The translations under genes were made by a program, and so were the position numbers. Below are positions 129 through 17,054 of a stretch of 64,000 nt of DNA, one piece after another (position 1 is the first letter of the stretch; each line of letters starts with the position of its first letter). The notes below the pieces were generated by a model. That model did not search any database and had not been told where the DNA came from. It worked only from the letters and a program-made list of their open reading frames with translations. This DNA is from an uncultured Verrucomicrobiae bacterium (GTDB lineage: Bacteria; Verrucomicrobiota; Verrucomicrobiia; Limisphaerales; J093): positions 8,787-72,786 of the forward strand of contig CALFAV010000004.1 in assembly GCA_937946835.1 (NCBI GenBank), given 5' to 3'.

Positions 129-1928
129 TTATGAGTTTGCGGACGCGGTTTCCGCCATCGGCTCTGGCTCAACCCACCGGCCGTGTTCCTTGATGAGGTC
201 CACCAGCCGGTCCACGGCCTCGGCCTCGGGGATGTTGAATTTCACCGGCGTCTTGCCCACGTAGAGGTTCACCTTGCCCGGCGCCCCGCCCACGTAGCCG
301 AAATGCGCATCGGCCATTTCGCCCGGGCCGTTCACGATGCAGCCCATGATGGCGATCTTCACGCCCTTGAGGTGTCGGGTGCGGGCCTTGATGCGTGCGG
401 TCACGGTCTGGAGGTTGAACAACGTGCGACCGCAACTGGGACAGGCGACGTAGTCGGTTTTGAACGACCGCACGCCGGCAGCCTGGAGGATGTTGTAGGC
501 CAGCCGCAGCGAGCGCTCCGGATCGTGCTCCCCGCGGACCAGCACGGCGTCCCCGATGCCATCGGCCAGCAGCGCGCCGAGGACCACCGAGGCCTGGAGC
601 AACGCCAGGTTTGGCGGCAGCGGTGGGTCGTCCAATGGCAGGCTGTCCTTGAGCAAAATCGGGTTGCGGCGGCCCAGTTGGTTCAGTCGCGCGGCCAGCA
701 GGCGAAACGCGGCGATCGCTGGCAGGTCCAGGCCGTCTTTGACCGTGACCAGGTGGGTGTCGCGTGGAATGGCGGCGGGGGAAATTTCCTCGCGCGGGTC
801 CAGTTCGAGCACGGGGAGGTCCTCGTACACGGCCTCGGGCCGGACGTCGTCCCGGGGGCGCAGCCGGGGCGCCACGCGCTCGAAGGTGGCGCGGGTCACC
901 ACCACCCGCACGGGTTCCTCAGCGCCGCAGGGCACGCCCGGGGCCAGCTCGATGATCGGCGTGGGTCGGCGTTGGAAGTTAAAGGGGTCGAACGGCAGGG
1001 GCAGCTCGGGCACGGGCTGGTGGTTGGCCAGCCGGGGCGTCAGGCGAATCAGGTCTTCGCACACCGGGATTTCATGCGGCGAGTCCTCGGTTAGGCTCAC
1101 TCGGATGGTGTCGCCCAGGCCCTCCACGAGCAGCGAGCCGATGCCGATGGCGGATTTGATGCGGCCGTCCTCGCCCTCGCCCGCCTCGGTTACGCCCAGG
1201 TGCAGCGGGTAATTCCAGTCCGGCCCCAGTTCGGCGAGCCGGGCGGCCAGCAGGCGGTAGCTCTGGATCATCACCTTCGGGTTGCTGGCCTTCATCGAGA
1301 ACACGAGGTGATGGAAGTCGTGCTTGCGGCAGATGCGGGCAAACTCGAGGGCGCTTTCCACCATGCCCTGCGGGGTGTCGCCGGAGCGGTTGAGGATGCG
1401 GTCGGAGAGCGAGCCGTGGTTGGTGCCGATGCGCAGGGCGCGGCCCAGCTCCTTGCAACGGAGGACCAGCGGGGTGAATCGCTCCTCCAGCCGCGCCAAC
1501 TCGGCGGCGTACTGGGCGTCGGTGTACTCCTTGACGACAAATTTCTTGCTGTCGGCGTAATTGCCGGGGTTGACACGCACCTTCTCCACCCACCGGGCGG
1601 CTTCGAGGGCGGCTTCGGGTTTGAAGTGGATGTCGGCCACGAGCGGCACGGGGCAACCGCGCCGGCGCAGTTCGCGCGCGATGTGCTCGAGGTTGGCGGC
1701 GTCCTTCACGGTGGGCGCGGTGATGCGCACCAGTTGGCAGCCGGCCTCGACCAGGGCCAGCGTCTCGCGCACACAGGCGGCGGTGTCCATCGTGTCGCAG
1801 GTGATCATGGACTGCTTCACCACCGGATGGTCGCCGCCGATGATCACCCCGCCGCGGGCCGGATCGCCCACCGTCACGGGACGGGTGGCGCGGCGGATGT
1901 GGCGGTACACGGAGGCGCAGTACTTCAT
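129..1928 (-). CDS. ispG: 4-hydroxy-3-methylbut-2-en-1-yl diphosphate synthase (IspG/GcpE), long form with inserted domain
   Basis: 599-aa ORF. The N-terminal block 'VTVGDPARGGVIIGGDHPVVKQSMITCDTMD...VRITAPT...VADIHF' and the C-terminal Fe-S block 'DYVACPSCGRTLFNL...IAIMGCIVNGPGEMADAHFGYVGG' are diagnostic of GcpE. TAA stop. The start overlaps the rseP stop (ATGA). Confidence 0.93.
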   Translation of the reverse strand: MKYCASVYRHIRRATRPVTVGDPARGGVIIGGDHPVVKQSMITCDTMDTAACVRETLALVEAGCQLVRITAPTVKDAANLEHIARELRRRGCPVPLVADIHFKPEAALEAARWVEKVRVNPGNYADSKKFVVKEYTDAQYAAELARLEERFTPLVLRCKELGRALRIGTNHGSLSDRILNRSGDTPQGMVESALEFARICRKHDFHHLVFSMKASNPKVMIQSYRLLAARLAELGPDWNYPLHLGVTEAGEGEDGRIKSAIGIGSLLVEGLGDTIRVSLTEDSPHEIPVCEDLIRLTPRLANHQPVPELPLPFDPFNFQRRPTPIIELAPGVPCGAEEPVRVVVTRATFERVAPRLRPRDDVRPEAVYEDLPVLELDPREEISPAAIPRDTHLVTVKDGLDLPAIAAFRLLAARLNQLGRRNPILLKDSLPLDDPPLPPNLALLQASVVLGALLADGIGDAVLVRGEHDPERSLRLAYNILQAAGVRSFKTDYVACPSCGRTLFNLQTVTARIKARTRHLKGVKIAIMGCIVNGPGEMADAHFGYVGGAPGKVNLYVGKTPVKFNIPEAEAVDRLVDLIKEHGRWVEPEPMAETASANS

Positions 1929-3337
1929 GGGCGGACGGGCGCGGGCGGCGCTCCGGGCGTGGGCGCCGGTTCGACCTGTTGAATCTCGGCCTGCCGGTCA
2001 AACAGGAGCCGGAACAGGGGGAGGCGCTTGAGGTCAAAGAAGGTCACGTAGAGGATGAAGCTGAGCAGGAGCATGGCGAAGCCGGTGGTGGTGTACTCGA
2101 CCACGCGCACGCTCAGCGGTCGGCCGCGCACCCATTCCACCAGGGCCATGAGGATGTGCCCGCCGTCGAGCACCGGGATGGGCAGCAGATTCAGAATGGC
2201 GAGGTTCAGGTTGAGGAGCACCAGGAAATTCAGGGCCAGGCGGTAGTCAATCGAGACCTGCGCCGCCAGAAAGGCAAAGATGCCCACCGGCCCGGACAGG
2301 TCCTTGGCGCCCACGCCCGTCTCCTTCGAGTGCAAGAGCGCCCCCAGGGTACCGACGGTGCGCTGCCACACCTCGCGGAAGTTTTCCCAGGGGGTGGGCC
2401 CGGGCCGGCGCACCTGGTACACCACCCGCTCGCTGCCCCCGATTTCCGCACCGATGAACCCCTTGCCCGTGGCGGGATTGATCCGGGGCGTGATGGTCAG
2501 GGTGACCTCGCGCTCGCCCCGCTGGATGACCAGTTCGGTCGCCTCGCCGGGACGCTGCTGGATCAACTTGATGAACTGCTCCCGCCCGGCGATCGGCACG
2601 CCGGCAAACGACCGCACCACGTCTCCCGGCTGCAAACCCACCGCCTCCGCCGCGCTGCCCGGCAGCACGCCGCGCACCACCGGATGCTCCTGCGGCTCCA
2701 GCGCCAGCATCTTCCAGCCCAGCTCGCGGTTGACCTTCGCGGTCAACGTCACCGTCTCCCGGCGCCCCTCCCGCTCGAAGGTCACGGCAAACACGTTGGT
2801 GCGGGACAACACCACCCGCTCGGTGACGTCCTCCCAGGAGCTGACCGGCTGGCCATTGACGGCCACGATGCGGTCGCCCGCCCGGAGGCCCGCGGCGTAT
2901 TCGGGGGAGTCTTCCGGCACGTGCCCGATGATGGCCGGGTTCACCGGCACCGGCAGGCCGGTGAAAAAAACCGCCACCGCCACGAGAAACGCAAACCCCA
3001 CATTCATCAGGGGACCCGCCACCGACACCAGGATTTTGGACAAGGGCGGCGCGGGCGGGGGCGGCGGCGCCCCGGATTTCCCGCCTTCCAGCGTCTCCGA
3101 GGTGATCATTTGCGGCAGGCGCACGAAGCCCCCGGCCGGAATCCAGCGCACCGAGTACTCGATGCCGTCCCGCACGCGGCTCCAGATGCGTGGGCCGAAC
3201 CCGATGGCGAAGGCCTCCACCTTCATCCCGCGCCAGCGGGCCACCAGGAAATGCCCCAGCTCGTGGACAAACACCGAGGCGCCAAACATCAACACCACGG
3301 CCGCGGCCACGTAAATCCAGAATAGAAAATCAACCAT
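1925..3337 (-). CDS. rseP: RIP site-2 zinc metalloprotease, M50 family (RseP-like)
   Basis: 470-aa ORF with 'HELGHFLVARW' (HExxH) in the first TM helix, central PDZ-like segments and the C-terminal 'LNLLPIPVLDGGHIL' motif. Sits directly upstream of ispG in the same operon. Confidence 0.9.
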   Translation of the reverse strand: MVDFLFWIYVAAAVVLMFGASVFVHELGHFLVARWRGMKVEAFAIGFGPRIWSRVRDGIEYSVRWIPAGGFVRLPQMITSETLEGGKSGAPPPPPAPPLSKILVSVAGPLMNVGFAFLVAVAVFFTGLPVPVNPAIIGHVPEDSPEYAAGLRAGDRIVAVNGQPVSSWEDVTERVVLSRTNVFAVTFEREGRRETVTLTAKVNRELGWKMLALEPQEHPVVRGVLPGSAAEAVGLQPGDVVRSFAGVPIAGREQFIKLIQQRPGEATELVIQRGEREVTLTITPRINPATGKGFIGAEIGGSERVVYQVRRPGPTPWENFREVWQRTVGTLGALLHSKETGVGAKDLSGPVGIFAFLAAQVSIDYRLALNFLVLLNLNLAILNLLPIPVLDGGHILMALVEWVRGRPLSVRVVEYTTTGFAMLLLSFILYVTFFDLKRLPLFRLLFDRQAEIQQVEPAPTPGAPPAPVRP

Positions 3338-3607
3338 GCTTGCAGCGGTGCCCCGGTGGCACAGCGGCCCAGTGTAGAACCCGCGTCGTTCCCCTGCAAC
3401 TGCGAGCCCTCCCCCGACCGCACCGCCCCGGCCGCCGGCCGTTGCTCGGTTTCTTGCACCTGGCTCGTGATTCCGGCTTTGCGGGCGCAGCGGCCGTCAT
3501 CCTGGCGGCCGCAGTGGGCGGCTCCCGACCGCCCGGGACAAGCTCACCCGCTACCAGGTCACCCGCCCGCCTGCCGAAAATTGAGACGCGCCCCCTGCCG
3601 TCGGCGG

Positions 3608-3690
3608 TTGCAATTCGTCCTGGACTTAGTTCAGTAGAAATGGTAATCGTTTAACAATCAACCAATAGTTGAACTAACAACAACATTGAC
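3608..3690. promoter_or_regulatory. AT-rich island in the rseP / giant-gene divergent intergenic region; probable promoter or operator region
   Basis: The stretch 'ttgcaattcgtcctggacttagttcagtagaaatggtaatcgtttaacaatcaaccaatagttgaactaacaacaacattgac' is strikingly AT-rich for this genome. It contains TTGCAA/TTAACA/TTGACC hexamers and the near-palindrome AGTTgAACT, and ends about 20 nt before ATG 3713. No specific -35/-10 assignment is secure. Confidence 0.35.
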
Positions 3691-3712
3691 CCTGCGCGGG
3701 CACACACGCGCC

Positions 3713-3865
3713 ATGCAACCGACCCTTCTTCGGTAAGTTTTTCCCGTGCTTCTCCTGGCCGGAACGCTCCGCGCCGCTGAGTTCACCTGGTCCGGCGCGG
3801 TTTCCTCGGATTGGTCCAACCCGGCCAACTGGACCCCGACCGGCGTGCCCGGACCGGCCGACTAG
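3713..3865 (+). other. Signal-peptide-encoding leader in frame with the giant ORF, interrupted by TAA (3734-3736) and ended by TAG (3863-3865)
   Basis: Same frame as 3893..15550. It reads M-Q-P-T-L-L-R-*-V-F-P-V-L-L-L-A-G-T-L-R-A-A-E-F-T-W-S-G-A-V-S-S-D-W-S-N-P-A-N-W-T-P-T-G-V-P-G-P-A-D-*, then V-I-Y-P-A-G-K-P-A-L-S-L-N-G. This is a Sec-type signal peptide followed by a Trp-rich opening motif. GTG 3746 is an alternative start for a 39-aa mini-ORF. Confidence 0.6.
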
Positions 3866-3892
3866 GTCATCTATCCCGCGGGAAAACCCGCT

Positions 3893-6800
3893 TTGAGCCT
3901 CAACGGAGCCCGTACCGTGGCCGGCTTCGCCCAGGCCGGCGGCGCGCTGGTCGGCCCCGGTCAGTTGACCGTGACCGGCAGTGGCACGTGGTCCGGCGGA
4001 ACCATTCGAGACAACTGCGTTTTGCTCATCCCGGCCGGGGCTTCCGGGACCATCACCGGTTCCGCCAGCCGGGCATTGGTGGGCGGCACGGTACGCGTGG
4101 CCGGCCTGGCCCGCTGGGAGGGCACGGCCAACATCGGGGCCGGGGAAGGTGCCCTGGTCGAAATTGTGCCCGGTGGGATTTTTGAACTTCGGAATGACGA
4201 GGGCTTTTACCACTCCTACGGCGGGGCCACGCCGAGCCTTCGCAATGCGGGTACGGTGCGCAAGCTGGAATCCACCGGCACCTCCAACTTGGGCGTCCCG
4301 TTTCACAACGAAGGCGAGCTCGTGGTGCTCAGCGGCACCTTGAGGCTGACTCGGGGCGGTTCCAGCTCCGGTCGCTTCCTGGCCACCGCGCCCGGGGTGC
4401 TCGAATTCGGAGACGGCACGCACGAGCTGTCGCCTGCCACCACCTGGCAGGGGAACGGCATCTTTCGGGTGACCAGCGGTACGGTCAACCTGGCGGGTAC
4501 CTGCGAATTGACAGGAAAAGCCGTCATCAGCGGGGGGACGCTTAACTTCACCGGGGCAAGCGCCAGTATCCTCAACTTGGAACTGGTTTCCGGCGAGCTC
4601 ACCGGCAACGGGCGGTTGGTGTTTGGGGACACGCTGAGCTGGAGCGGGGGGACGCTGCGCGGGACCGGGGAGGTGGTGATCCCGGCGGGGGGGCGGCTGG
4701 TGCTGAGCGGCAGCGCGGGGCGGACGCTGCGGGGCGGGCGCACGGTGCGGGTGGCGGGGGAGGCGGTCTGGGAGGGCAGCGGCAGTCTCAGCAGCGGGGA
4801 GGGGGCGCGGGTGGTGATTGAGCCGGGCGGGGTGTGGGTGCTGGGGACGGACGCGGACTTTTACTTCAACTGGGGTGGGGAGCGGACGGTGGTGCAGAAT
4901 GCGGGGCTGGTGCGCAAGAGCGGCGGCGGGGGGGTGAGCACCTTTGCCGGGGTGGCCTTGGCGAACGCCGGCACCCTGGCCGTGGACACGGGCATGTGCT
5001 CGTTCACGGGGCCTTTCACGCAGGAAACAGGCACGTTCCGGGTGGGGTTGCGTGACCCGACGGACCTCGGGCAAATCCGCATTCAGGGCACGGCGCCCTT
5101 GAACGGCACTTTCGTGGCGATTTGGCGCGAAGGATTCGTTCCGACCGTGGGGGCGACCTTCCCGGTCGTGCTTTATGGTGGTCGCAGCGGTGGGTTTACC
5201 AACTGGCAACTGCCGGCGTTGCCCGGCGGCCTGGCGTGGCGGGCGTCGTATCTGGCGGACCGCCTGCAACTCGAGGTCACGACCGCTCCGACCCCCACCG
5301 CCCAAATCCGGGGCACGGTCCGCAGCACCACGGGCAATTCCATCGCCGGGGCGCGCGTGTTTGCCTTTCGGCTTGATCCCCACCAGGTCCTGTCCCTGGA
5401 CACGGTGACCGACGCCTCCGGCGCCTATCGGCTGGGCGTGACCGATGGCACCTGGCAGGTGGGAGTGACGGGGTTGCCGGCGCTGGGTTTTCGCGAGGTG
5501 CCCAATCAAACCGTCGTCGTCAGCGGCGCCGACCAGGAAGTCCACTTCGTGACCGCCCCCCTGGCCGGTCAAAATTTCCTGGTCACGGTGCGTGTCCAAC
5601 CCGAGGCGGGCGGCTCGGTCAGCGGTGGGGGAACGTACCCGGAGGGCACGGAGGTGACCGTGAGGGCCACGCCCAGCCGCAGTCCGGTGCCGTATGTTTT
5701 CCTGAACTGGACGGAGGGCGGGGTGGAGGTTGGCCGGGAGCCGGCCTACACCTTCATGCTGACCCGCCACCGGGACCTGGTGGCCCACTTCGCCGTGGAA
5801 ACCTTCACGGTCACGGCCGCCAACGATCCGCCTGCGGGCGGCCGGGTCAGCGGCGCGGGGATTTTTGCCTACGGGGCGACCTGCACGTTGCGCGCCACGC
5901 CCAACTTCGGCTACCGCTTCGACCGTTGGACCGAGGAGGGCGCGGTCCTTAGCACCAACGCGGAGCTGAGCCTGGTGGTCCAGACCAACCGCACCCTGAT
6001 TGCGCACTACGCCGAGGCGCATCTGTGGCACACGGTCGCCACGGCCACGCAGCCGCCGAACCTGGCGCCGGTCAGCGGTGCCGACACGTACACCAACGGC
6101 CAAACCGCCACCTTCAACGCCCCGGCCGGCCTGACCGACGCGGTGAACCGCTACACCTTCAGCCACTACCTCTGGAACGGGGCTTGGCACACGAGCGCGA
6201 ACCCGTTCACCAAAGTCTTCGCCACCACCGACCCGACCAACGTGACGGTCACGGCGGTGTACCGGGTCCAAAGCCTGCAGCCGCGCGTGGTGGCCGTGGA
6301 GCCCGATCCCCCGGAGCCCGTCCCCGCAACCACCAACTTCACGCTCCGCATCCGCTTTGATCGTCCCATGCGTGGGGTGCCGGAGCCGGCCGTGGTGCTG
6401 AGCAACCGGGTCAACGGTCAGGCGCTGGCCTTCCCTCCGGGGGGCACGTGGGGCACCGGGTCAGTCTCGAACGACGTTTACCGAACCCCGCCGCTGGCCG
6501 TCACGCCCGCCCTCGATGGGACCAACGAGGTCTGGATTGCCGGAGCGCGCGACGTGTACGACTACGCGTTGCTGCCAACCAACGCGCTGCCTCTGGTGGT
6601 GGACGCCACCCCGCCGCAGATCAGCGCCCTGACCGCCGCGGCCGGTCCCCACCTGGCGGTGATCACCTGGGTGACCGACGAACCGGCCACCTCGCAGGTC
6701 GAGTATGGGGAAACCGGCGCTTACGGCCGGCTGACCCCCCTCAGCACTTCCCGCGTGACCGCCCACCGTGTCGAACTGAGCGGGTTGATGCCGGATCGGC

Positions 6801-9800
6801 GGTACCATTTTCGGGCGCGGAGCCGGGACCGGGCGGGCAATGAAACCGTTTCGGCCGAGGCGACCCTGACCACCGGCCCGGCGCCCGATCTTTCGATTGC
6901 TCGGCTTACCGTTGAACCGCCGGGCGACCTGACCAGCGGCATCCCGGTGGTGATTCGCTGGACGGTGACCAACTCGGGCCCGGGCGCGGTCACCGCCTCC
7001 TGGTACGACCGCGTGGTGGTGAGCAACGTCCCCCTGGGCGCGGTGCTTGGGGACACCCTGGTCTATCACGACCACGCCGCGCTGGGGCCCCTGCCCGGCG
7101 GCACGGCTCGTGAGCGCGAGCTGGCCTGGGTCCTGCCCGACGGGCCCTCGGGCGCCGGGTCGTTGGAATTTGCCGTGACAAGCGACGCGCTCGGCGCCGT
7201 GTTCGAGTGGAACCCCGCCGGCTCCGCCGAAACAAACAACCGCGCTGCACTAAGCCGCGTCAGCACCCTCGCGGCCTACCCGGATTTGGGGGTGACCGAC
7301 CTGGCGGTCAGCCCGGTCGCCCCGCGCTCAGGGCAGGAACTGACCCTGACCTGGCAAACGCGGAACTCGGGGACCGCACCGGTGATCGCGTCCTTTGTCG
7401 AGCGGCTCACCGTGCGCAACCTCGACACCGGCGAAACATTCTTTGCGGACCTGGTCCGCTACGACGCCGGCGCTGACGGCCCCATCCCCCCGGGCGGCAG
7501 CCGTGCCCGGCAGTTGTCCGTGCGCCTGCCCAATGGCCCGCGCGGCGTGGGCCGCTTGCAAATCGAGGTGCTCACCGACAGCCAGGACCACGTTTTCGAG
7601 TACAACGCCGCCGGCACCGGCCAGCTCAACAACACCGCCACGCGGGAAGTAACCGCCACGCTGGCCGCCTACCCCGATCTGGTCGTTACGGCCGTGACCG
7701 GTCCGACCGAGGGTCTGCCCGGACAGGAAATCCCGGTGGTTTGGTCCGTGGCCAATCTGGGCAACGCCCCGGCGGCAGGCACCTGGACCGACCAGGTCTT
7801 TTTGTCCGGTGACGCCCTCCCCGGCGGCGATCTCCTGCTGGGCAGCTTCGTTTTCACCGGCACCCTGCCGGTCGGGCAGACGCTGACCCGCACCCAGGCG
7901 GTGAGCCTGCCCGTGTTTGGCGCCGGGCCGCACCGGCTGCGGGTGCGCGCGGACGCGGGAAATGCCCTGTACGAACTGGACAAGACCAACAACCGGGGCG
8001 TGGCCCCGCTGCCGCTGAACCTGACGCCCAGCCTGGCGTTGCTGGTCTCGCCCGACCGCATTTCCGAAGGCGCGGGCGAAAACGCGGCCACCGGCCGGGT
8101 GCGCCGCAACACCCCTGCGACCGCGCCGCTAACCGTCGCGCTGGCCAGCAGCCACACCAACAAGGTCCGCGTGCCCGAGCAGGTGGTCATCCCGGCCGGC
8201 CGCAGTGAAGCCCCCTTCCCGGTGACCGCCGTGGACGACACCTGGGCCGCCGGCCCGGCGCCGGTCACGCTCACCGCTTCGGCACCCGGCCACGAGACCG
8301 CCACCACGACGCTGAGCGTGCAGGACGACGACCTGCCCCAACTGCTGCTGCGGGTCTCCCGGAGCCGGGTGGCCGAAGGTGAGGGGCCAACTGCCGCACT
8401 GGCCTACCTGACCCGCAACGGGACCACCAACCTCCCGCTGGTCGTCACGCTGTTCAGCGACCGCATCAACCACCTCGCGGCGCCGGCCACGGTCCGGCTC
8501 GAAGCCGGAGAGCGCCACCTGGTGTTCCCACTCGCCGCGGTGGACAACGCGGTCCTCGAGGGCACGGTCACCGTGCGCCTTCAGGCCACGGCGCCGGGTT
8601 ATCCCGCCGCTTCAGTGCGGGTGGAAGTGACCGACAACGACGCGCCCCTGCTGACCCTGGTCCCCAGCGTGACGCTCCTGGTCGAAGGCGGTCCCAGTCC
8701 GGCCGCCACGATCACGGTTACGCGCGACCCGGTGACCGACCGCCCGTTGACGCTGCGCCCGGGTACCGGCGGGCCGAGCGACCTGATTTACCCGCCCCAG
8801 GTCGTGATCGGCGCCCGCGAGGCTTCCGCCACCTTCGGGATTTCGGTGCGCGATGATGACCGCGTGAACGGCGCGCGGGAGATTCCGCTGCGGGTGGCGC
8901 CCCTGGCGGACAACGGCGCCGTGCTGGACGAGTACGCGGCCGAGGTTCGGTTCGAGGTGCTGGACAACGACGGCCCCTCCCTTTCCCTGCGGCTGGCCGG
9001 CGACGTCGTGCGCGAAGGTGACAGCCTCACGGCCACCCTCGCCCGCAACACCGATCCGGCCGCGCCGCTGACCGTAAGCCTGGCCAGCAGCGACCCGGGC
9101 GAGGCGCAGGTACCCGCCCGCGTGGTCATCCCCGCCGGCCGGCTCAGCACCGCGTTCCCGGTGACCGGCGTGCGAGACGGGGTGAGCGACGGCACGCAAC
9201 CGGTGTTGTTGACCGCCAGCGCGCCGGGTTTCAACCCCGCCACCGCCGCTCTGAATGTGACCGACCTGGACGTGCCGGATTTGCGCGTGGTCGAAATCCG
9301 CGCGCCGACCTCGGCGGTGGGCGGATCCGTTGTTCAAATTTCCTGGGTCATCACCAACGCCGGTCTGGCGGCCGCCTCCGGCGCGTGGTCCGACCGCGTG
9401 TACCTTTCCCGCGATGCCTACGCCGGCGGCGACACACCGGTGGGCGGCGTCACTTTCAACGGGTCCCTCGCGGCGGGCGGGACCTACGTCCGCTCCGCGT
9501 TCGTGACCCTGCCGGAAACGCCGCGGGAGCACTGGTTCGTCGTGGTCACGGACGCCGACAACGCCCTGGTCGAGGGCGCCGACCACAACAACACCGCGGT
9601 TTCGGCCGTGCCCGTGCGGGTTGAGCCGGCCTGGCGCGCCGTTGCCGAAACGGAGGTGGAGCTGGCCCCTTGCGGCACCCCCGTGCCCATTCGCGGCCGG
9701 GCGTGGTACGTGGCCGATCAATCGCCCGCGGCGGGGCGGCCGGTCGAGGTGCGCATTCGCACGGGCGCCGTGCGGCGCGTGCTGCGGGCGGTGGCCGACG

Positions 9801-12800
9801 CGCGCGGCGAATTTGCCTGCACTTTTGAACCCCTGCCGACCGAGGCCGGCCACTACACGCTGGGCGCCGAGCATCCCGAGGTGGCCGAGGACCCGGCGCA
9901 GGACCGGTTCGCGCTGGGGGGCTTCGCGGCAGTGCCGGAGCGCCTGAGCCTGCGCCTGGCCCCTTTCACCCCGGTGAGCGGCCGGCTCGAATTGCGCAAC
10001 CGCGGCGCCGTGCCGTTGAGCGGTCTGCGCGCCGGCCTGTCCAACGCCCCGCCCGGTCTGGACCTGCAACTGAGCTTCCCCGACGCCCTGCCCGGCTCCG
10101 GGACCGCGGACCTGGCCTACACCCTGAACACCACGATGACCAACCGCGCCCGGTTCGACGCGGTGCTGCATCTGACCACGGCCGAAGGCGCCCGGACGGC
10201 GGTGCCGCTGGAAATCACGGTCGCCCCCCTGCAGCCCGAGTTGGTTTCCGATCCGCCCTTCCTGACCCGGGGCATGGTACGGGGCACGCGCGCCCTGCTC
10301 ACCTTCGACGTGGCGAACGTCGGCGGCGCCCCCAGCGGCGAACTGGAAGTGCGCCTGCCAGAGGCGGCGTGGCTTGGCCTGGCCAGTGAAGCCCGGATTC
10401 CCTCGCTTGCGCCCGGCGAGAAAACCACGGTCACACTGGCGCTGAATCCCTCGGCGGACCTGCCCCTGACCCGTTACGACGGTCAGGTGGGGCTGTTCGG
10501 AGAGCGCACGTGGATCATCGTGCCGTTCCAGTTTCGGGCCGTTTCGGAGGCCGTGGGCGACCTGGTGGTCACGGTCAGTGACGAGTACACCTACTTCGTG
10601 GCCGGCGCGCCGCGGGTGACCAATGCCGCGGTGCGGCTGCGTGACCCGCTCACGCTGGAATTGGTGGCCGAAAGCCCCACCGACGCCGACGGCCGGGCGC
10701 GGTTCGCCAACCTCCCCGAAGGCCCCTACACGTTGGAAGCGGCGGCCGAACGCCACGCCACGCATCGCGGCAACTTCCTGCTCCTGCCGGGCATCGAGAA
10801 CACCGTGGACGTGTTCCTCGCCCGGCAGACGGTCATCTACCGGTGGACCGTGGTGCCGCTGGAGATCGAGGACACCTACCGCATCGTGCTCGAGCCGGTC
10901 TTCGAGACCGAGGTGCCCGTCCCGGTGGTGGTGATGGAAAACCCGCACAAGGTGGAGCTGGTGGTGCCGGGGCAGACCACGCAGTTCGACATCACCCTGG
11001 TCAACCCCGGGTTGATTGCGGCGCAAAATGTCCGGCTCATTGTCCCGAACGACCCCGATTACGAAATCACTCCGCTGGTGAGGGAGGTCCCGGTGCTGCC
11101 GGCCAAAAGTCGGGTCACCATCCCCACCACCATACGTTTGCGGGAGGGCACCGCCGCGGCCCTGGCCAACGCGCGCTCCCCGGACCCCGCCGCGGCCGTC
11201 GCCCTGGCCGGGGCGCCCGTGCCGGCCGACCCACCGCCGCCGATGTGCAAACTCCAACTGCACGGTTGCCTGCCGGGCCTGCCGCTGGGCTACACCTACG
11301 AGTACGAGTGCAACGGCCCGAGGAAAAACGGCGGCGGCGGCGACCTGCGGCCCGTGTGCGTGGACCAGGACAAGTTTGACTGCGTGAAGGACCTGATGAC
11401 CTGCCTCCTTGGGCGTGAACCCTGCGACCCGTGTGATCTGGCCATGGCCCTGATTGCCTGCGCCGGGGCGGAGATGAGCCCCTGCCTGAAGGCGACGCTG
11501 CTGGCCGCCTGCCACATCCTGAGCAAGGGCGGCGCGGGCATCATCCCCAGCTTGGGCGGCTTCCTGGAGTGTCTCTGTGATTTGTTGTCCGGCCTGGGTG
11601 GCTCCGACTCCTCGGACCCGGGGCCCGGAGGTGACGGGGGACCATTGCCCCCCGGGCTGGCTCTGACCTCCAAAAACGTGGACATCCGGGGACCGGGATG
11701 GGGGCTGCCCCCCTGCACCAACCAGGGCGGATTGCAGGGAGTGGCGTTGGCCGGTCACGCACCGGTCCGGCACGCGCCCCCCGGGGCCGGTGTTTGCGCC
11801 CGCGTGCGGCTGCGCATCGAGCAGGAGGCTGTGCTCACCCGCACCGCTTTTCTGGGCACGCTCGAACTGGACAATGGCGGTCCGCACCCGCTCGAGGGCA
11901 TTCGGGTCACGCTCGAATTCCGCGACCTCGAGGGCAACCCGGCCGGAGAGCGCTTCGTGATACGCGGCCCCGAGGTCACCGGGCTGAGTGACGTGAACGG
12001 CACCGGCACGCTGGCGCCGTTCCGGATTGGCACGGCCCGTTACACCTTCATTCCCACGCGTGAGGCCGCGCCCACCGCCCCGGCCGTGTACCACATCGGC
12101 GGCATGCTGCGCTACGTCGAGGCCGGCCAGGAGATGTTGGTGCCGCTGTACTCGGCCGGCATCTCCGTGTTCCCCGAGCCGCGCCTGCACCTGCTGTACT
12201 TCCAGCAGCGGGACGTGTTCAGCGACGACCCGTTCACCGACGAAATCGAGCCGGCCGAACCGTTCGCCCTGGGGCTGATCGCCCGCAACCTGGGCGCCGG
12301 ACCGGCCCGCAACTTCCGCATCACCTCCGCCCAACCGCGCATCATCGAAAACGAGAAGGGCCTGTTGGTGGACTTCAAGATTATCGGCACCCAGGTGGGC
12401 GACCAGCCGGTCGCACCCTCCCTGACGGCGCGGCTGGGGAACATCCCGCCCGGCGGCGCCCAAACCGCCGTGTGGTGGATGACCAGCACCCTCCAGGGCA
12501 AGTTTGTCGAGTACCACGCCACCTTCGAGCACGTGGACTCGCTGGGCGTGACCAACCTGTCCCTGATCGAGTCGGTCGAGGTGCATGAACTGATCCGGGC
12601 CGTGCGCGCCGACCGGCCCGGCGACGACGCGCTGCCGGACTTTCTGGTCAACGACGAGCCCGATCCGGACAGTTTGCCGGACACCCTTTACTTGAGCGAC
12701 GGCACGCGGGCGGTGGTCAACCCGGCCACCAACGTGCGCACCGACCGCGCCCCCACGCCGGACCGGCCGGTGGTGCAACTGAGCGCGGCGATGCCTTCCG

Positions 12801-15550
12801 GTTGGGGCTACCTCCGCGCCCCCGACCCCGGACCGGGCTACCGCCTGGTGCGCGTGGTGCGCGCTGACGGCCGTGAGCTGCGCGTCGGTGAACACGCCTG
12901 GACCACCGACCGCACCTTCCCGTCGGCGCAGGCCGGCGCGCGGCGCGAGCACCACCTGCACCTTTTGGATCACGACAGCCCGGGCGCGTACACCCTGCAT
13001 TACCGGGTGAACGATCCCGAGCCGCCGCGCATTTTGGCCATCATCGGTCTGGCGCCCGGCGCGCCATCCGCGCCGGTGGACGAGTTGGACGTGGTCTTCT
13101 CCGAGCCGATTGACCCGGCCACGTTCGACTTCGAGGACCTGGAGCTCTCGCTTGACGGGGGCCCGAACCGCATCACGGCCGCCGTGGGCATTCGGCACCT
13201 TTCCGGCAGCACCTATCGGGTGGGCAACCTGGCCGGGCTGACCGATCTGCCCGGCAATTACGAATTCACCGTGCGGGGCGAGGACCTCCGCGATTTCGGG
13301 GGCAACCCGGCGGCCAATTCGCTCTCCGTCCGCTGGGCCTTCGAACGCGGGGGACCGGTGGCGGTCCGGGTCGGCCCGGTCCGGCCCGACCCCCGCAACA
13401 CCCCGGTGAGCACCGTGGACGTGGAATTCTCCCGCCCGATCAATCCGCTCACGTTCGAGGCAAGTGACCTGGGGCTGACACGCAACGACGGGCCGAATCT
13501 GGTTGGCCCGGCCATCACCGTGGCGGCGCTTTCGCCGACCACCTTCCGTGTCGGCGGACTGGATACGCTGACGCGCGCCGAAGGGCGTTACCGGTTGACC
13601 GTGCACGGTGCCGGGGTCCGCGACACCGAGGGGCGGGCCGGGACCGGTCGGCTGAGCGCGGAATGGACCATGCTCACCACCGGCCCGCGCCTGGTGGCCC
13701 TCGAGGCGGTGGCCACGACCCCGCGCAACCTCGTGGTCCCGTCGCTGGACGTGACCTTTGCCGCGCCCATAGACCCGGCCTCGTTCGACCATCGCGATCT
13801 GACCCTGAACCGCGACGGCGGCCCCAACCTGATCACTCCCGAGGTGCGCCTCGAGCGCCTCCGCGACACGGTCTATCGCATCCGCGAGTTCAACTGGGTC
13901 GTGGGCCAGGAGGGCACCTACACGCTGACCGTGAACGCCGCCAACATCCTGGACCCCGCCGGGAATCCGGGCCGCGGCACATTGTCCACCTCCTGGGTCA
14001 TGGACACGACCCCGCCGGCCGCGCCGCGGCAACTGACCATCACCCCGGACCTGGGAATTTCGGCCGGGGACGCACTGACCTCGACCAACGTTCTGACCCT
14101 GGCCGGCACGCTGAGCGAACCCAACCTCACGGTCCGCCTGCGGGACGAGAGTGCCGGCGCCGACCTGGGCGAGGCGGTGGTCACCGGCACCAACTTCCAC
14201 CGCGTGCTGCGTTTGACCGCCCCGGGGTTGCACGCGCTGCAGGTGCGCGCCGTGGACGCCGCGGGCAACGTCTCACCCACCGCCGTCCTGCCGGTCTTCC
14301 TCGACCTGGTGCCACCCACGGCCGCCTTTGAACCGGTCGCCCCCGACCCGCGCACGACGCCGGTGTCGGCGGTGGTGTTGCGCTTCAGTGAACCCATCGT
14401 GGCGGACCGGCTGACCCCGGACGACTTCACGCTCGTCCGCGACGGAAGCTCGAACCTGGTGACCGCCGCACTGACCATCACCCACGCCTTCGGCGATGCG
14501 TTTGCCATTGGCGGCCTGGCCCCGCTCACCGCCGTGCCGGGCGAGTACCGGCTGCGGCTCTTGCCCGGGAGCGTCGAGGACCGGGCGGGCAATGCAAACC
14601 TCGAGACGGTCGAGCTCGTCTGGACCCTGCGTGCGCCCAACACCCCGCCGCAACTGACGCGTCCGGCCAATGTTCACCTCGGCCCCGAGATGTGGCTGGT
14701 GTTCACCAACACCGCCACCGACGCGGACGTGCCGCCCAATCGCCTGACCTTTCGACTCGAACCGGGCGCGCCGGCCGGCGCCACCGTGGACCCCGACACC
14801 GGCGTTTTCCGCTGGAAACCCACCCGGGCCCAGGCGCCGGGCGTTTATCCCCTGACCCTCACGGTCACGGATGACGGCACCCCGCCGTTGAGCGACTCGG
14901 CCTCGTTCACCGTGACGGTCACGGATTTTCTTGAACTGCGCTGGGGGCGGGTGGCGGTCCTGGCCGGCAGTACGGTCGCCGTGCCACTGCATGTTTTTAC
15001 CAGCGGGTTGCTCACGAACCTGGAGTTTGAACTGCGACTGAGCACGGAGCGGTTGACCCACCTGACCCTGGAGCCGCTGCGCCCGGAAATCGCCCTCGCC
15101 ACGGTCCGGGAGCTGAGCCCGCGGCGTTACGCCATGAACCTGCGGACCGGCCCCGGCCAAAGCCTCCGGGGCGCGCATCTGGCCGCTTTGTTGCACGTCA
15201 CGGCGCGCACCGGCGCACCCTCGGAATTCGTCGCGCTGGAGTCCGAGCGGGTCGCTTTCCAAATCATGGAATCGGCGTTGCCGGGTGTGGCGTTTGGGGT
15301 CGCCGGACGGGTGGCCGTGCTGGCGGAGCAGCCGTTGCTCGACGCGGCGGTGGCGGCGGACGGGTCTTACTTGCTTTCCGTGTTCGGGGCTTCGGACATC
15401 ACCTGCCAGCTCCAGGTAGCCTCGCGTTTGGGACCGGACGCCAACTGGACCGACTGGCAGCGGGTGACCCTGTCCGCCCTGGAACAGCCCGTACCGCTGC
15501 CAGCGCTGCCCTTCAGCCCGGTGTTTTTCCGCGCCGTGGTCATCCCCTAG
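3893..15550 (+). CDS. Giant (3,885 aa) multi-domain surface/adhesin-like protein with beta-helix-like repeats, CarboxypepD_reg-like, B-repeat, FN3-like, CARDB, Calx-beta-like, Cys-rich island, Ig-like (SbsA/Big-like), cadherin-like, cohesin-like and C-terminal beta-sandwich modules
   Basis: Single uninterrupted 11,658-nt ORF with a TAG stop. Domain idioms read by eye include 'IRGTVRSTTGNSIAGARVFAF' (CarboxypepD_reg-like), 'PDLxVxxLxVxP...GqxxxvxWxvxNxG' (CARDB), units ending in D-D-D/D-N-D (Calx-beta-like), 'VDxLDVxFSEPIDPATFDxxDLxLxxDGGPN' (Ig-like) and 'DADVPPNRLTFRLEPGAP...VDPDTGVFRWKP' (cadherin/He_PIG-like). The first in-frame start after the upstream TAG is TTG 3893, and no signal peptide follows it. 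Confidence 0.9.
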   Translation: MSLNGARTVAGFAQAGGALVGPGQLTVTGSGTWSGGTIRDNCVLLIPAGASGTITGSASRALVGGTVRVAGLARWEGTANIGAGEGALVEIVPGGIFELRNDEGFYHSYGGATPSLRNAGTVRKLESTGTSNLGVPFHNEGELVVLSGTLRLTRGGSSSGRFLATAPGVLEFGDGTHELSPATTWQGNGIFRVTSGTVNLAGTCELTGKAVISGGTLNFTGASASILNLELVSGELTGNGRLVFGDTLSWSGGTLRGTGEVVIPAGGRLVLSGSAGRTLRGGRTVRVAGEAVWEGSGSLSSGEGARVVIEPGGVWVLGTDADFYFNWGGERTVVQNAGLVRKSGGGGVSTFAGVALANAGTLAVDTGMCSFTGPFTQETGTFRVGLRDPTDLGQIRIQGTAPLNGTFVAIWREGFVPTVGATFPVVLYGGRSGGFTNWQLPALPGGLAWRASYLADRLQLEVTTAPTPTAQIRGTVRSTTGNSIAGARVFAFRLDPHQVLSLDTVTDASGAYRLGVTDGTWQVGVTGLPALGFREVPNQTVVVSGADQEVHFVTAPLAGQNFLVTVRVQPEAGGSVSGGGTYPEGTEVTVRATPSRSPVPYVFLNWTEGGVEVGREPAYTFMLTRHRDLVAHFAVETFTVTAANDPPAGGRVSGAGIFAYGATCTLRATPNFGYRFDRWTEEGAVLSTNAELSLVVQTNRTLIAHYAEAHLWHTVATATQPPNLAPVSGADTYTNGQTATFNAPAGLTDAVNRYTFSHYLWNGAWHTSANPFTKVFATTDPTNVTVTAVYRVQSLQPRVVAVEPDPPEPVPATTNFTLRIRFDRPMRGVPEPAVVLSNRVNGQALAFPPGGTWGTGSVSNDVYRTPPLAVTPALDGTNEVWIAGARDVYDYALLPTNALPLVVDATPPQISALTAAAGPHLAVITWVTDEPATSQVEYGETGAYGRLTPLSTSRVTAHRVELSGLMPDRRYHFRARSRDRAGNETVSAEATLTTGPAPDLSIARLTVEPPGDLTSGIPVVIRWTVTNSGPGAVTASWYDRVVVSNVPLGAVLGDTLVYHDHAALGPLPGGTARERELAWVLPDGPSGAGSLEFAVTSDALGAVFEWNPAGSAETNNRAALSRVSTLAAYPDLGVTDLAVSPVAPRSGQELTLTWQTRNSGTAPVIASFVERLTVRNLDTGETFFADLVRYDAGADGPIPPGGSRARQLSVRLPNGPRGVGRLQIEVLTDSQDHVFEYNAAGTGQLNNTATREVTATLAAYPDLVVTAVTGPTEGLPGQEIPVVWSVANLGNAPAAGTWTDQVFLSGDALPGGDLLLGSFVFTGTLPVGQTLTRTQAVSLPVFGAGPHRLRVRADAGNALYELDKTNNRGVAPLPLNLTPSLALLVSPDRISEGAGENAATGRVRRNTPATAPLTVALASSHTNKVRVPEQVVIPAGRSEAPFPVTAVDDTWAAGPAPVTLTASAPGHETATTTLSVQDDDLPQLLLRVSRSRVAEGEGPTAALAYLTRNGTTNLPLVVTLFSDRINHLAAPATVRLEAGERHLVFPLAAVDNAVLEGTVTVRLQATAPGYPAASVRVEVTDNDAPLLTLVPSVTLLVEGGPSPAATITVTRDPVTDRPLTLRPGTGGPSDLIYPPQVVIGAREASATFGISVRDDDRVNGAREIPLRVAPLADNGAVLDEYAAEVRFEVLDNDGPSLSLRLAGDVVREGDSLTATLARNTDPAAPLTVSLASSDPGEAQVPARVVIPAGRLSTAFPVTGVRDGVSDGTQPVLLTASAPGFNPATAALNVTDLDVPDLRVVEIRAPTSAVGGSVVQISWVITNAGLAAASGAWSDRVYLSRDAYAGGDTPVGGVTFNGSLAAGGTYVRSAFVTLPETPREHWFVVVTDADNALVEGADHNNTAVSAVPVRVEPAWRAVAETEVELAPCGTPVPIRGRAWYVADQSPAAGRPVEVRIRTGAVRRVLRAVADARGEFACTFEPLPTEAGHYTLGAEHPEVAEDPAQDRFALGGFAAVPERLSLRLAPFTPVSGRLELRNRGAVPLSGLRAGLSNAPPGLDLQLSFPDALPGSGTADLAYTLNTTMTNRARFDAVLHLTTAEGARTAVPLEITVAPLQPELVSDPPFLTRGMVRGTRALLTFDVANVGGAPSGELEVRLPEAAWLGLASEARIPSLAPGEKTTVTLALNPSADLPLTRYDGQVGLFGERTWIIVPFQFRAVSEAVGDLVVTVSDEYTYFVAGAPRVTNAAVRLRDPLTLELVAESPTDADGRARFANLPEGPYTLEAAAERHATHRGNFLLLPGIENTVDVFLARQTVIYRWTVVPLEIEDTYRIVLEPVFETEVPVPVVVMENPHKVELVVPGQTTQFDITLVNPGLIAAQNVRLIVPNDPDYEITPLVREVPVLPAKSRVTIPTTIRLREGTAAALANARSPDPAAAVALAGAPVPADPPPPMCKLQLHGCLPGLPLGYTYEYECNGPRKNGGGGDLRPVCVDQDKFDCVKDLMTCLLGREPCDPCDLAMALIACAGAEMSPCLKATLLAACHILSKGGAGIIPSLGGFLECLCDLLSGLGGSDSSDPGPGGDGGPLPPGLALTSKNVDIRGPGWGLPPCTNQGGLQGVALAGHAPVRHAPPGAGVCARVRLRIEQEAVLTRTAFLGTLELDNGGPHPLEGIRVTLEFRDLEGNPAGERFVIRGPEVTGLSDVNGTGTLAPFRIGTARYTFIPTREAAPTAPAVYHIGGMLRYVEAGQEMLVPLYSAGISVFPEPRLHLLYFQQRDVFSDDPFTDEIEPAEPFALGLIARNLGAGPARNFRITSAQPRIIENEKGLLVDFKIIGTQVGDQPVAPSLTARLGNIPPGGAQTAVWWMTSTLQGKFVEYHATFEHVDSLGVTNLSLIESVEVHELIRAVRADRPGDDALPDFLVNDEPDPDSLPDTLYLSDGTRAVVNPATNVRTDRAPTPDRPVVQLSAAMPSGWGYLRAPDPGPGYRLVRVVRADGRELRVGEHAWTTDRTFPSAQAGARREHHLHLLDHDSPGAYTLHYRVNDPEPPRILAIIGLAPGAPSAPVDELDVVFSEPIDPATFDFEDLELSLDGGPNRITAAVGIRHLSGSTYRVGNLAGLTDLPGNYEFTVRGEDLRDFGGNPAANSLSVRWAFERGGPVAVRVGPVRPDPRNTPVSTVDVEFSRPINPLTFEASDLGLTRNDGPNLVGPAITVAALSPTTFRVGGLDTLTRAEGRYRLTVHGAGVRDTEGRAGTGRLSAEWTMLTTGPRLVALEAVATTPRNLVVPSLDVTFAAPIDPASFDHRDLTLNRDGGPNLITPEVRLERLRDTVYRIREFNWVVGQEGTYTLTVNAANILDPAGNPGRGTLSTSWVMDTTPPAAPRQLTITPDLGISAGDALTSTNVLTLAGTLSEPNLTVRLRDESAGADLGEAVVTGTNFHRVLRLTAPGLHALQVRAVDAAGNVSPTAVLPVFLDLVPPTAAFEPVAPDPRTTPVSAVVLRFSEPIVADRLTPDDFTLVRDGSSNLVTAALTITHAFGDAFAIGGLAPLTAVPGEYRLRLLPGSVEDRAGNANLETVELVWTLRAPNTPPQLTRPANVHLGPEMWLVFTNTATDADVPPNRLTFRLEPGAPAGATVDPDTGVFRWKPTRAQAPGVYPLTLTVTDDGTPPLSDSASFTVTVTDFLELRWGRVAVLAGSTVAVPLHVFTSGLLTNLEFELRLSTERLTHLTLEPLRPEIALATVRELSPRRYAMNLRTGPGQSLRGAHLAALLHVTARTGAPSEFVALESERVAFQIMESALPGVAFGVAGRVAVLAEQPLLDAAVAADGSYLLSVFGASDITCQLQVASRLGPDANWTDWQRVTLSALEQPVPLPALPFSPVFFRAVVIP
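3986..5011 (+). repeat. Two copies of a ~124-aa beta-helix-like unit in the N-terminal region of the giant protein (3986-4357 and 4637-5011)
   Basis: Hand alignment: 'TWSGGTIRDN..IPAG...GSA.RALVGGTVRVAGLARWEG...GEGALVEIVPGG...D.GFY..YGG.....NAGTVRK' versus 'SWSGGTLRGTGEVVIPAG...GSAGRTLRGGRTVRVAGEAVWEG...GEGARVVIEPGG...DADFYFNWGG....NAGLVRK'. Confidence 0.75.
5575..6265 (+). repeat. Three tandem ~75-aa 'B-repeat'-like units within the giant protein
   Basis: Units 'VTVRVQPEAGGSVSGGGTYPEGTEVTVRATP...YVFLNWTEGG', 'FTVTAANDPPAGGRVSGAGIFAYGATCTLRATPNFGYRFDRWTEEG' and 'HTVATATQPPNLAPVSGADTYTNGQTATFNAP...FSHYLWNG'. Confidence 0.6.
6884..8020 (+). repeat. Three tandem CARDB-like modules; a fourth lies at about 9271-9600
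   Basis: Each unit opens with '(Y)PDL(S/G/V)(I/V)..L.V.P' and then 'G..(I/L).(V/L).W.V.N.G.(G/A)'. Confidence 0.65.
8031..9270 (+). repeat. Four tandem Calx-beta-like modules (~100 aa each)
   Basis: Units begin 'L(L/V)VSPDRISEG', 'LLLRVSRSRVAEGEG', 'LTLVPSVTLLVEGG' and 'LSLRLAGDVVREGDS'. Each contains '..V.IPAG(R)....F.V..V(D/R)D' and ends in 'V(Q/T/L)D(D/N/L)D'. Confidence 0.65.
13018..14640 (+). repeat. Array of five ~105-aa Ig-like modules (four SbsA/Big-like and one different Ig-like unit)
   Basis: Recurrent 'P...V..(L/V)DV.F(S/A).PI(D/N)P.(T/S)F...DL.L.(R/L)(D/N)(D/G)GPN(L/R)(I/V)' followed by 'Y(R)(V/L)..L..LT...G.Y.(F/L)TV'. Confidence 0.65.
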
Positions 15551-16351: not shown

Positions 16352-17005
16352 TTATTTCACGCCGCGGCGGGGACAGAGCCGGGCGATTTCACAGCCGGCG
16401 CAGTCCGGTTTGCGGGCGAAGCAGCGCCGCCGGCCGTGCCAGATGAGCCAGTGGCTGAACAGAGTCCACAGCTCGCGCGGCACCAGTTTCATCAGGTCCT
16501 GCTCGATCTTGAGCGGGTCCCGCTGGCGGGTCAGGTCCAGCCGTTGGGCCAGCCGCGCCACGTGGGTGTCCACCACCACGCCCTCGTTCAGGCCGAAGGC
16601 GTTTCCCAGCACCACGTTCGCCGTCTTGCGGCCCACGCCCTCCAGGCGGGTCAGTTCCTCGAGCGTGCGCGGCACCTCCCCGCCGTGGCGCTCAACCAGC
16701 GCCCGGCACGCAGCCTGGAGGGCGCGGGCCTTGTTGCGAAAAAACCCCGTGGAACGGATCGCCGCCTCGAGTTCGGCCCGCGGCGCGTTGGCGTAATCGG
16801 CGGCGGTGCGGTAGTGCCGGAACAGGTCGGCGGTGACCTGGTTGACGCGCTGGTCGGTGCACTGGGCCGAGAGGATGGTGGCCACGAGCAGCTCGAGCGG
16901 GTTCGAGTAGTTCAGCTCGCAGTGCGCGTCCGGGTAGGTGCGGCGCAGTGCTTCAATCAGCGCCGCCACGCGGCGGGCTTGAGCGGGGGCGGTTTCGCGG
17001 GGCAT
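16352..17005 (-). CDS. nth: Endonuclease III (DNA glycosylase / AP lyase)
   Basis: The real start is the internal ATG at 17005 (MPRETAPAQ...). Has the HhH motif 'LEGVGRKTANVVLGNAFG' and the 4Fe-4S loop 'CFARKPDCAGCEIARLC' (C-x6-C-x2-C-x5-C). The upstream part of the 305-aa track ORF is Arg/Ser/Pro junk. Confidence 0.92.
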   Translation of the reverse strand: MPRETAPAQARRVAALIEALRRTYPDAHCELNYSNPLELLVATILSAQCTDQRVNQVTADLFRHYRTAADYANAPRAELEAAIRSTGFFRNKARALQAACRALVERHGGEVPRTLEELTRLEGVGRKTANVVLGNAFGLNEGVVVDTHVARLAQRLDLTRQRDPLKIEQDLMKLVPRELWTLFSHWLIWHGRRRCFARKPDCAGCEIARLCPRRGVK

Positions 17006-17054
17006 GAGGGCGGCGGAAGGCGGCGTTCCGAAGATCGAAGTTCGTAAGGCGCGC

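Follow-up and report, generated by a model that had tools for sequence, protein, structure and literature searches.

We analysed a stretch of 64,000 nucleotides (nt) from an uncultured Verrucomicrobiae bacterium (contig CALFAV010000004.1; hereafter the window, with positions counted from its first letter), in which a giant gene begins at ATG 3713 and is interrupted near its 5' end by two in-frame stop codons. Comparison with near-identical contigs and with orthologues indicates that the window carries a young, segregating loss-of-function allele, that is, a young pseudogene, of a gene for a giant secreted surface protein, and we put the probability of this reading at roughly 0.78. The 5' end and body of the gene are laid out as follows:

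3713..3775, plus strand: ancestral start and signal-peptide-like leader, codons 1-21, MQPTLLR, then the glutamine codon that is now a stop, then VFPVLLLAGTLRA followed by AE
3746..3865, plus strand: residual mini open reading frame (ORF) of 39 codons from GTG 3746 to TAG 3863, a remnant of the leader and the tryptophan (Trp)-rich motif
3782..3892, plus strand: Trp-rich N-terminal motif of the mature protein, FTWSG..SDWS.P.NW.P.GVPGP.D.V.Y
3893..15550, plus strand: remaining open body from TTG 3893, 3,885 codons, as given by a mechanical ORF list

Direct translation from ATG 3713-3715 yields M-Q-P-T-L-L-R before the TAA at 3734-3736, which is codon 8. Between this stop and the TAG at 3863-3865 (codon 51) the same frame reads VFPVLLLAGTLRAAEFTWSGAVSSDWSNPANWTPTGVPGPAD, and after the TAG it resumes as VIYPAGKPALSLNG and stays free of stops up to TAG 15548-15550. 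The original prediction, which had read an ATG at 3713, a TAA at 3734, a TAG at 3863 and a first possible start of the open body at TTG 3893, was reproduced exactly. Long open frames alone mean little here, because the G+C content of the window is 65-74%. Codon-position G+C supports the giant-gene frame as coding downstream of 3773, with a third-position G+C of 0.87 over 3866-15550, and the frame is not a chance one, because the same 180 nt are uninterrupted in conspecific contigs and in two orthologues that start with MQP. The public gene call on the 102,565-bp ENA/NCBI contig (P0093, 3,877 residues) starts at GTG 3917 and lacks the leader; in every other respect it agrees with the window. 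In an allele that has the TAA only (P0090), the gene caller picked GTG 3746 as the start, and no record of the 39-residue product of the mini-ORF was found among the called proteins.

Four conspecific public contigs were found via the RseP protein of the window, which they encode in identical form: L040 (ENA ERZ6863929, 90 kb), L041 (ERZ6863514), L042 (Logan ERR9287617) and L043 (Logan ERR9287621). Their identity to the window is 99.66-99.92%, and their ERR and ERZ numbers lie in the same ranges. Both L041 and L042 have CAA at 3734 and CAG at 3863, and in each a single ORF runs from the ATG for 283 codons to the contig end; L040 has TAA at 3734 and CAG at 3863. Among the compared contigs, both stops occur together in the window only. 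A more distant contig, L001, which encodes the orthologue P0001, has 84-86% DNA identity to the window, which points to a sister species, and is syntenic with it, with an M50 peptidase gene (rseP) upstream on the other strand. At the two stop positions L001 has CTG and CGG, and L002, a still more distant relative that encodes the orthologue P0002, has GGA and CAA, so that a sense codon stands at codon 51 in 5/5 comparison sequences and at codon 8 in 4/5. With L001 as the outgroup, both stops polarise as derived C>T transitions of glutamine codons. Because sense codons are found in the sister alleles and in the outgroup, we conclude that the stops are derived and polymorphic in a natural population. 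The explanation that had been offered first among several, a very recent knock-out or off-state allele, is thus supported by the contigs with CAA and CAG and by the intermediate allele with the TAA only. The lesions of the gene in this population are:

3734..3736, plus strand: TAA at codon 8, from CAA (Gln) by C>T at 3734; common to the window and L040
3863..3865, plus strand: TAG at codon 51, where C>T at 3863 changed a CAG (Gln) codon; private to the window
7619, plus strand: 1-nt deletion in L040 and L044, which shifts the frame at about codon 1303 and is absent from the window

A synonymous C>T change at 3742 is linked to the TAA at 3734. The deletion at 7619 removes the G of CCGGCC (L040 position 5719), splits the gene of L040 into calls of 1,301 and 2,618 residues, and is present in two accessions, ERZ6863929 (L040) and ERR9287890 (L044, a slightly different haplotype). 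L041 and L042, two independent assemblies of the intact-allele haplotype, both break at window position 4563. These breaks, together with that of L043 at 3632, suggest further polymorphism within the samples at these sites, in forms that are absent from the contigs compared.

The part of the protein that precedes the open body has the layout of an exported N-terminus. With glutamine restored at codon 8, the leader has R7, the 11-residue hydrophobic run VFPVLLLAGTL (mean Kyte-Doolittle hydropathy of 2.17 over 10 residues) and LRA before AE. A heuristic check found a basic n-region, an h-region and small residues at -3 and -1, the same layout as in the orthologues P0001 and P0002, and it found nothing leader-like at the N-terminus of the products from GTG 3746, TTG 3893 or GTG 3917. 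The closest orthologue, P0001 (72% identity), reads MQPTVLRLLFPVFLLAGSTRAADFTWSGAVSSDWSNPANW...GPGDRVTYP and the second, P0002 (66% identity), MQPSTFAGIVSLLLVAGPLSATDYTWLGSLSSDWSEPANW...GPEDQVNCP, and both open with MQP. In the alignment of the 5' regions, which had been proposed as a check, P0001 and P0002 begin at the equivalent of ATG 3713 and have sense codons at both stop positions. The conspecific alleles and the orthologues thus read through from this start, as expected if the leader and the Trp-rich opening have been cut off from the body.

The AlphaFold2 model of P0001, built with 30 aligned relatives, has a predicted local distance difference test score (pLDDT) of 90 and a predicted template modelling (TM) score of 0.87, and is all-beta and solenoid-like. 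Its pLDDT is low over residues 1-20, as a leader would give, which adds to the support for the signal peptide that had been read from the window. Residues 21-60, which contain the Trp motif, have a pLDDT of 97-98 with strands at 23-26 and 51-54, and codon 51 is the opening of the second of these strands. With high confidence, the model gives the Trp motif as the opening rungs of this all-beta, solenoid-like domain. A search with the conceptual read-through N-terminus gave 88 homologues, none above about 1,010 residues in length, and the motif (regular expression W..W..NW..P..D.[AV].[I]) occurs in the first 260 residues of 46 of the 88, where it mostly follows a signal-peptide-like N-terminus. 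The motif that the original prediction had associated with beta-helix surface proteins is therefore recurrent, while a beta-helix fold is suggested by the all-beta model without a significant match in the PDB: Foldseek returned a best E of 0.017 with a TM-score of about 0.2, and none at 0.001 or below. The weak PDB neighbours of the module are the beta-helix adhesins Ag43, EtpA, HMW1 and Hap, and the first 524 residues match no model in Pfam or NCBIfam. The N-terminal module belongs to a very large family for which Pfam and NCBIfam have no model: a full-library HMMER search gave 5,410 proteins at E <= 0.001, many of them giant and multi-copy; among the matches listed, only P0002 (68%, 345 residues long) exceeds 45% identity. 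Scans of genome and metagenome contigs with the N-terminal alignment gave distant relatives only, and a second homologue search with residues 401-1000 gave domain-level matches only, none longer than about 1,010 residues.

In the functional gene, ATG 3713 would be followed by a Sec-type leader, the Trp-rich cap, a beta-solenoid-like module and a long series of immunoglobulin (Ig)-like, CARDB and other domains. In the window allele, translation from the native start would stop after 7 residues, and re-initiation at GTG 3746 would end after 39 residues. Initiation at TTG 3893 or GTG 3917 would give a product that lacks the leader and the first N-terminal rungs and would not be exportable by the Sec route. 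We infer that export and function of the window allele are lost. The 11.6-kb frame would still be open because the lesions are very recent and because a G+C content of 69% offers few chances for new stops.

How recent the lesions are can be judged from the gene body, in which 17 differences separate the window from L040, 6 of them non-synonymous and 11 synonymous. Given the codons that the gene contains, neutral mutations would be from 50% (C>T only) to 76% (transversions) non-synonymous, and across this range the probability of 6 or fewer non-synonymous sites among 17 is 0.08 to 0.0006. The body therefore appears to have been under purifying selection for most of the divergence time of the haplotypes, which leaves two options: knock-outs of very recent date, or recombination that moved the 5' end from one haplotype to another. 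Recombination finds support at site 3881, where the window agrees with L042 and L040 with L041, because this pattern is incompatible with that of 3734 and 3742. As to the order of events, we infer that the TAA came first, since it is common to L040, and that the TAG and the frameshift of L040 and L044 are later, independent mutations.

One further feature bears on how the 5' changes should be read:

3620..3690, plus strand: AT-rich upstream element, a putative promoter or leader region, from its position and its conservation with the sister species L001 only

Only the window has the changes 3633 C>A, 3660 T>A and 3666 G>T in this element, and these three intergenic single-nucleotide polymorphisms (SNPs) all lie within the sole stretch of the spacer that is conserved between the species. 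A sigma-70 scan of the upstream region found no site in the window or in the intact allele, and sigma-54 and extracytoplasmic-function-type promoter matches noticed by eye in the element were discarded for wrong spacing. The two C>T changes linked to the TAA allele (3734 and 3742) complete, at 3718-3744, a 5-bp hairpin followed by TTTTT that is absent from the intact L041; we do not rely on this terminator-like hairpin, as about 0.7 such matches occur per shuffled region.

Some of these observations weigh against a young allele that simply decays. No haplotype is shown intact over the whole gene, because L041 and L042 end at 4563. The TAG at 3863 and the SNPs at 3633, 3660 and 3666 are seen in the window only, which puts four private changes into a span of 231 bp, compared with nine in the remaining 13.1 kb. 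C>T would make a stop at 87 codons of the restored gene; the first 60 codons hold three of them (codons 2, 8 and 51), and two of the three are mutated, for which (3/87)^2 is about 0.001; this is more clustered than simple neutral decay would give. Could the private changes be an artefact of assembly, consensus or base calling, such that the true genome has CAA and CAG and the window contig is wrong or a chimeric strain consensus? The sample holds several strains, and L043 ends at 3632, beside the variable site 3633. We nevertheless consider an artefact unlikely. The TAA and its linked change at 3742 are also present in a second assembly, L040; the differences are scattered substitutions of a normal spectrum, not indel or homopolymer errors; and a chimeric consensus would still consist of real alleles. 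Moreover, a de Bruijn graph would break where reads hold both alleles, so the break at 3632/3633 argues for a window-type variant in the real reads of ERR9287621 and suggests that the window-type 5' haplotype is real. The assembly error that had been listed among the first explanations thus keeps a small chance for the private TAG, and is unlikely for the TAA, with its two assemblies. A different account of the cluster is that loss of the giant protein is adaptive in this habitat, for instance owing to its cost or to targeting by phages or predators, and that the promoter changes, the TAA, the TAG and the frameshift at 7619 are selected changes that arose in succession or in parallel. Three different inactivating lesions occur in one population of at least 99.7% identity, changes on the window lineage are about 25-fold enriched in 3633-3863 (4 seen against 0.23 expected; Poisson P about 1e-4, a hand estimate from the counts), all three intergenic SNPs lie in the conserved spacer stretch, of the three early codons that C>T can turn into a stop, two are struck, and out-of-frame deletions are present in L001 (107 nt) and in L002 (about 8.9 kb, on a contig found in 2 samples). 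On the other side, the numbers are small, the recombination evident at 3881 means that an imported patch could create the cluster, the disruptions in L001 and L002 are subject to ascertainment bias, and a giant gene is simply a large mutational target. Selected silencing is therefore possible but in our view doubtful, and the same caution applies to the idea that the TAG would serve to remove residual expression from re-initiation at GTG 3746. That the gene has been switched off repeatedly and actively, as the three knock-outs, the sister-species deletions and the upstream burst of changes might suggest, we regard as somewhat improbable. If it were true, it would mean adaptive loss of a costly or phage- or predator-targeted surface structure, with the early double stop abolishing residual translation of an 11.8-kb gene.

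Two further accounts would keep the gene functional in spite of the stops. Under programmed read-through or suppression, a full-length protein with its signal peptide would still be made, and it is favoured by a downstream frame that is long and intact and by a body that bears the mark of purifying selection (11 synonymous to 6 non-synonymous); yet the stops are not conserved, with sense codons in the conspecific alleles and in both orthologues, and two different stop codons would have to be decoded. Both stops are followed by G, which is not a notably leaky context in bacteria. The window has neither a suppressor tRNA (its only tRNAs are Ser-GCT and Gly-TCC) nor a recoding RNA element, with no Rfam match over 3300-4100. 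TAA and TAG also end normal genes within the window: ispG terminates at TAA with the family-typical 599 residues, and TGT and several other complete genes terminate at TAG. A crude scan of third-position G+C turned up ordinary gene boundaries only and no second case of a coding region interrupted by an in-frame stop, and by Pfam the genes flanking these boundaries are complete (RpoN, a YegS-like kinase, radical SAM enzymes, IGPD and others). We regard read-through, which had been put forward as one option, as extremely improbable, and agree with the original prediction that a genome-wide change of code is unlikely. The other account, re-initiation, would yield a functional leaderless giant protein from TTG 3893 or GTG 3917 that uses another export route or stays intracellular, with the 39-codon ORF acting as an upstream ORF. 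GGAG lies 9 nt upstream of GTG 3917, the start chosen in P0093, and the body is so far undecayed, but the product would be missing the leader as well as about 40-48 residues from the first rungs, which are modelled with high confidence. None of the homologues examined starts there, the motif mostly follows a leader-like stretch, and the arrangement is confined to the window allele. A GTG 3746 mini-ORF with re-initiation, as had also been suggested, is very unlikely on these grounds. Other explanations were considered and set aside. The other two frames yield no leader-like peptide, which removes a frameshift-compensated reading of codons 5-15, and targeted mutagenesis of the diversity-generating-retroelement type was rejected because the variable bases are not adenine-specific. 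As for a repeat-based phase switch, there are no tandem repeats in 3300-4630, and the inverted and direct repeats found are short, G+C-rich and at chance level only.

The sister-species deletions need a word of caution. L001 lacks 107 nt out of frame near codon 366 (L001:3485-3501; window 4794-4915), and in L002 codon 339 is joined out of frame to codon 3300 (L002:1735-1737; window about 4729 to 13610). Since only short microhomology is present, the junctions look like real deletions and not like k-mer misjoins. We first accepted them as evidence of recurrent loss and then gave them less weight, because every protein from the word-indexed search was about 1,010 residues long or shorter, so that it could yield truncated orthologues only and not intact ones of about 3,900 residues.

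With a young null allele as the preferred reading, the public annotation should be revised: the leaderless protein proposed by the call from GTG 3917 (3,877 residues) is almost certainly not produced in that form, and the entry should be flagged as a pseudogene or null allele with ATG 3713 as its true start. A young pseudogene is an ordinary kind of event, and the residual interest lies in the clustered promoter and leader changes and in the several lesions that are independent of one another. One set of related metagenomes contains alleles that are intact, hit once and hit twice, and a giant adhesin-like gene is thereby caught early in its inactivation. Are giant surface proteins lost neutrally or under selection? 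The locus offers a usable natural experiment for this question, and it has no bearing on genetic-code variation or recoding. A literature search found nothing on the run and assembly accessions, and a general search found nothing specific.

In Salmonella Typhi, the giant adhesin genes siiE, shdA and ratB are split. The window gene resembles such Salmonella adhesin pseudogenes in that a giant, repetitive gene for a secreted surface protein carries nonsense or frameshift lesions in some strains, has intact relatives and keeps its frame open. It differs in that it belongs to an uncultured environmental Verrucomicrobiota population and not to a host-restricted pathogen, and in that three lesions segregate at once, two of them in the first 51 codons and beside a cluster of changes in the promoter region. 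With recoding systems (selenocysteine, pyrrolysine, suppressor tRNAs, alternative codes) it shares in-frame stops before a long conserved frame, but here the stops are unconserved even among conspecifics, are of two types and have no recoding element in the window. The predicted long, all-beta, solenoid-like module after a signal peptide recalls the beta-helical passenger and TpsA adhesins (Ag43, Hap, EtpA, HMW1), although there is no significant structural or sequence match to them and neither an autotransporter barrel nor a two-partner secretion domain was detected.

The sequence context differs between the two stops. TAG 3863 arose at a CCAGG (CCWGG) site, by mutation of its second C, while the TAA 3734 site has no CCWGG context. 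Coulondre, Miller, Farabaugh and Gilbert reportedly described, in 1978, amber hotspots at 5-methylcytosine in CCAGG sites of E. coli lacI, and TAG 3863 is the same CAG>TAG change at the same base. Unlike in the Dcm system, the only methylase seen in the window is of the N6/N4 type, with no C5-methyltransferase, and CCWGG is not depleted but over-represented (475 observed against 282 expected). We record a Dcm-type hotspot at TAG 3863 as a possible lead only. The N6/N4-type DNA methyltransferase is encoded at 19037-20170 (plus strand) and an HhH-GPD base-excision glycosylase at 16352-17269 (minus strand), a few kb downstream of the giant gene; both matter here solely as background to the idea of methylation and deamination. 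CTAG is very rare in the window, with 6 occurrences against about 182 expected from base composition, and TAG 3863 makes one of the six. Among the polarised substitutions of the giant gene over 3893-13337 (against L040 and L044) there are about 11 C>T and 3 G>A on the coding strand; the numbers are small, and this strong asymmetry would be consistent with a replication-strand bias or with deamination on the non-transcribed strand.

The body of the giant gene comprises the beta-solenoid-like repeat module, CarboxypepD_reg, InlB B-repeat (Flg_new_2), fn3/PAP_N-like, CARDB, Big_13, Big_5 and He_PIG domains, with no barrel domain in its 3,885 residues; distant relatives terminate in PEP-CTERM or type IX secretion system sorting domains. 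A Cys-rich stretch at about 10700-11000 (read-through residues about 2330-2430; CKLQLHGC...CNGPRKNGGGGDLRPVCVDQDKFDCVKDLMTCLLGREPCDPCDLAMALIACAG...CLKATLLAACH...CLCD), for which no Pfam match was reported, sits amid the Ig- and CARDB-type domains. Within the N-terminal module (window 3866-5270, residues about 52-520) there is an internal duplication, in which residues 60-213 resemble residues 276-432. Upstream, the divergent neighbours of the gene on the minus strand encode the RseP-type M50 peptidase (1925-3337) and ispG (129-1928).

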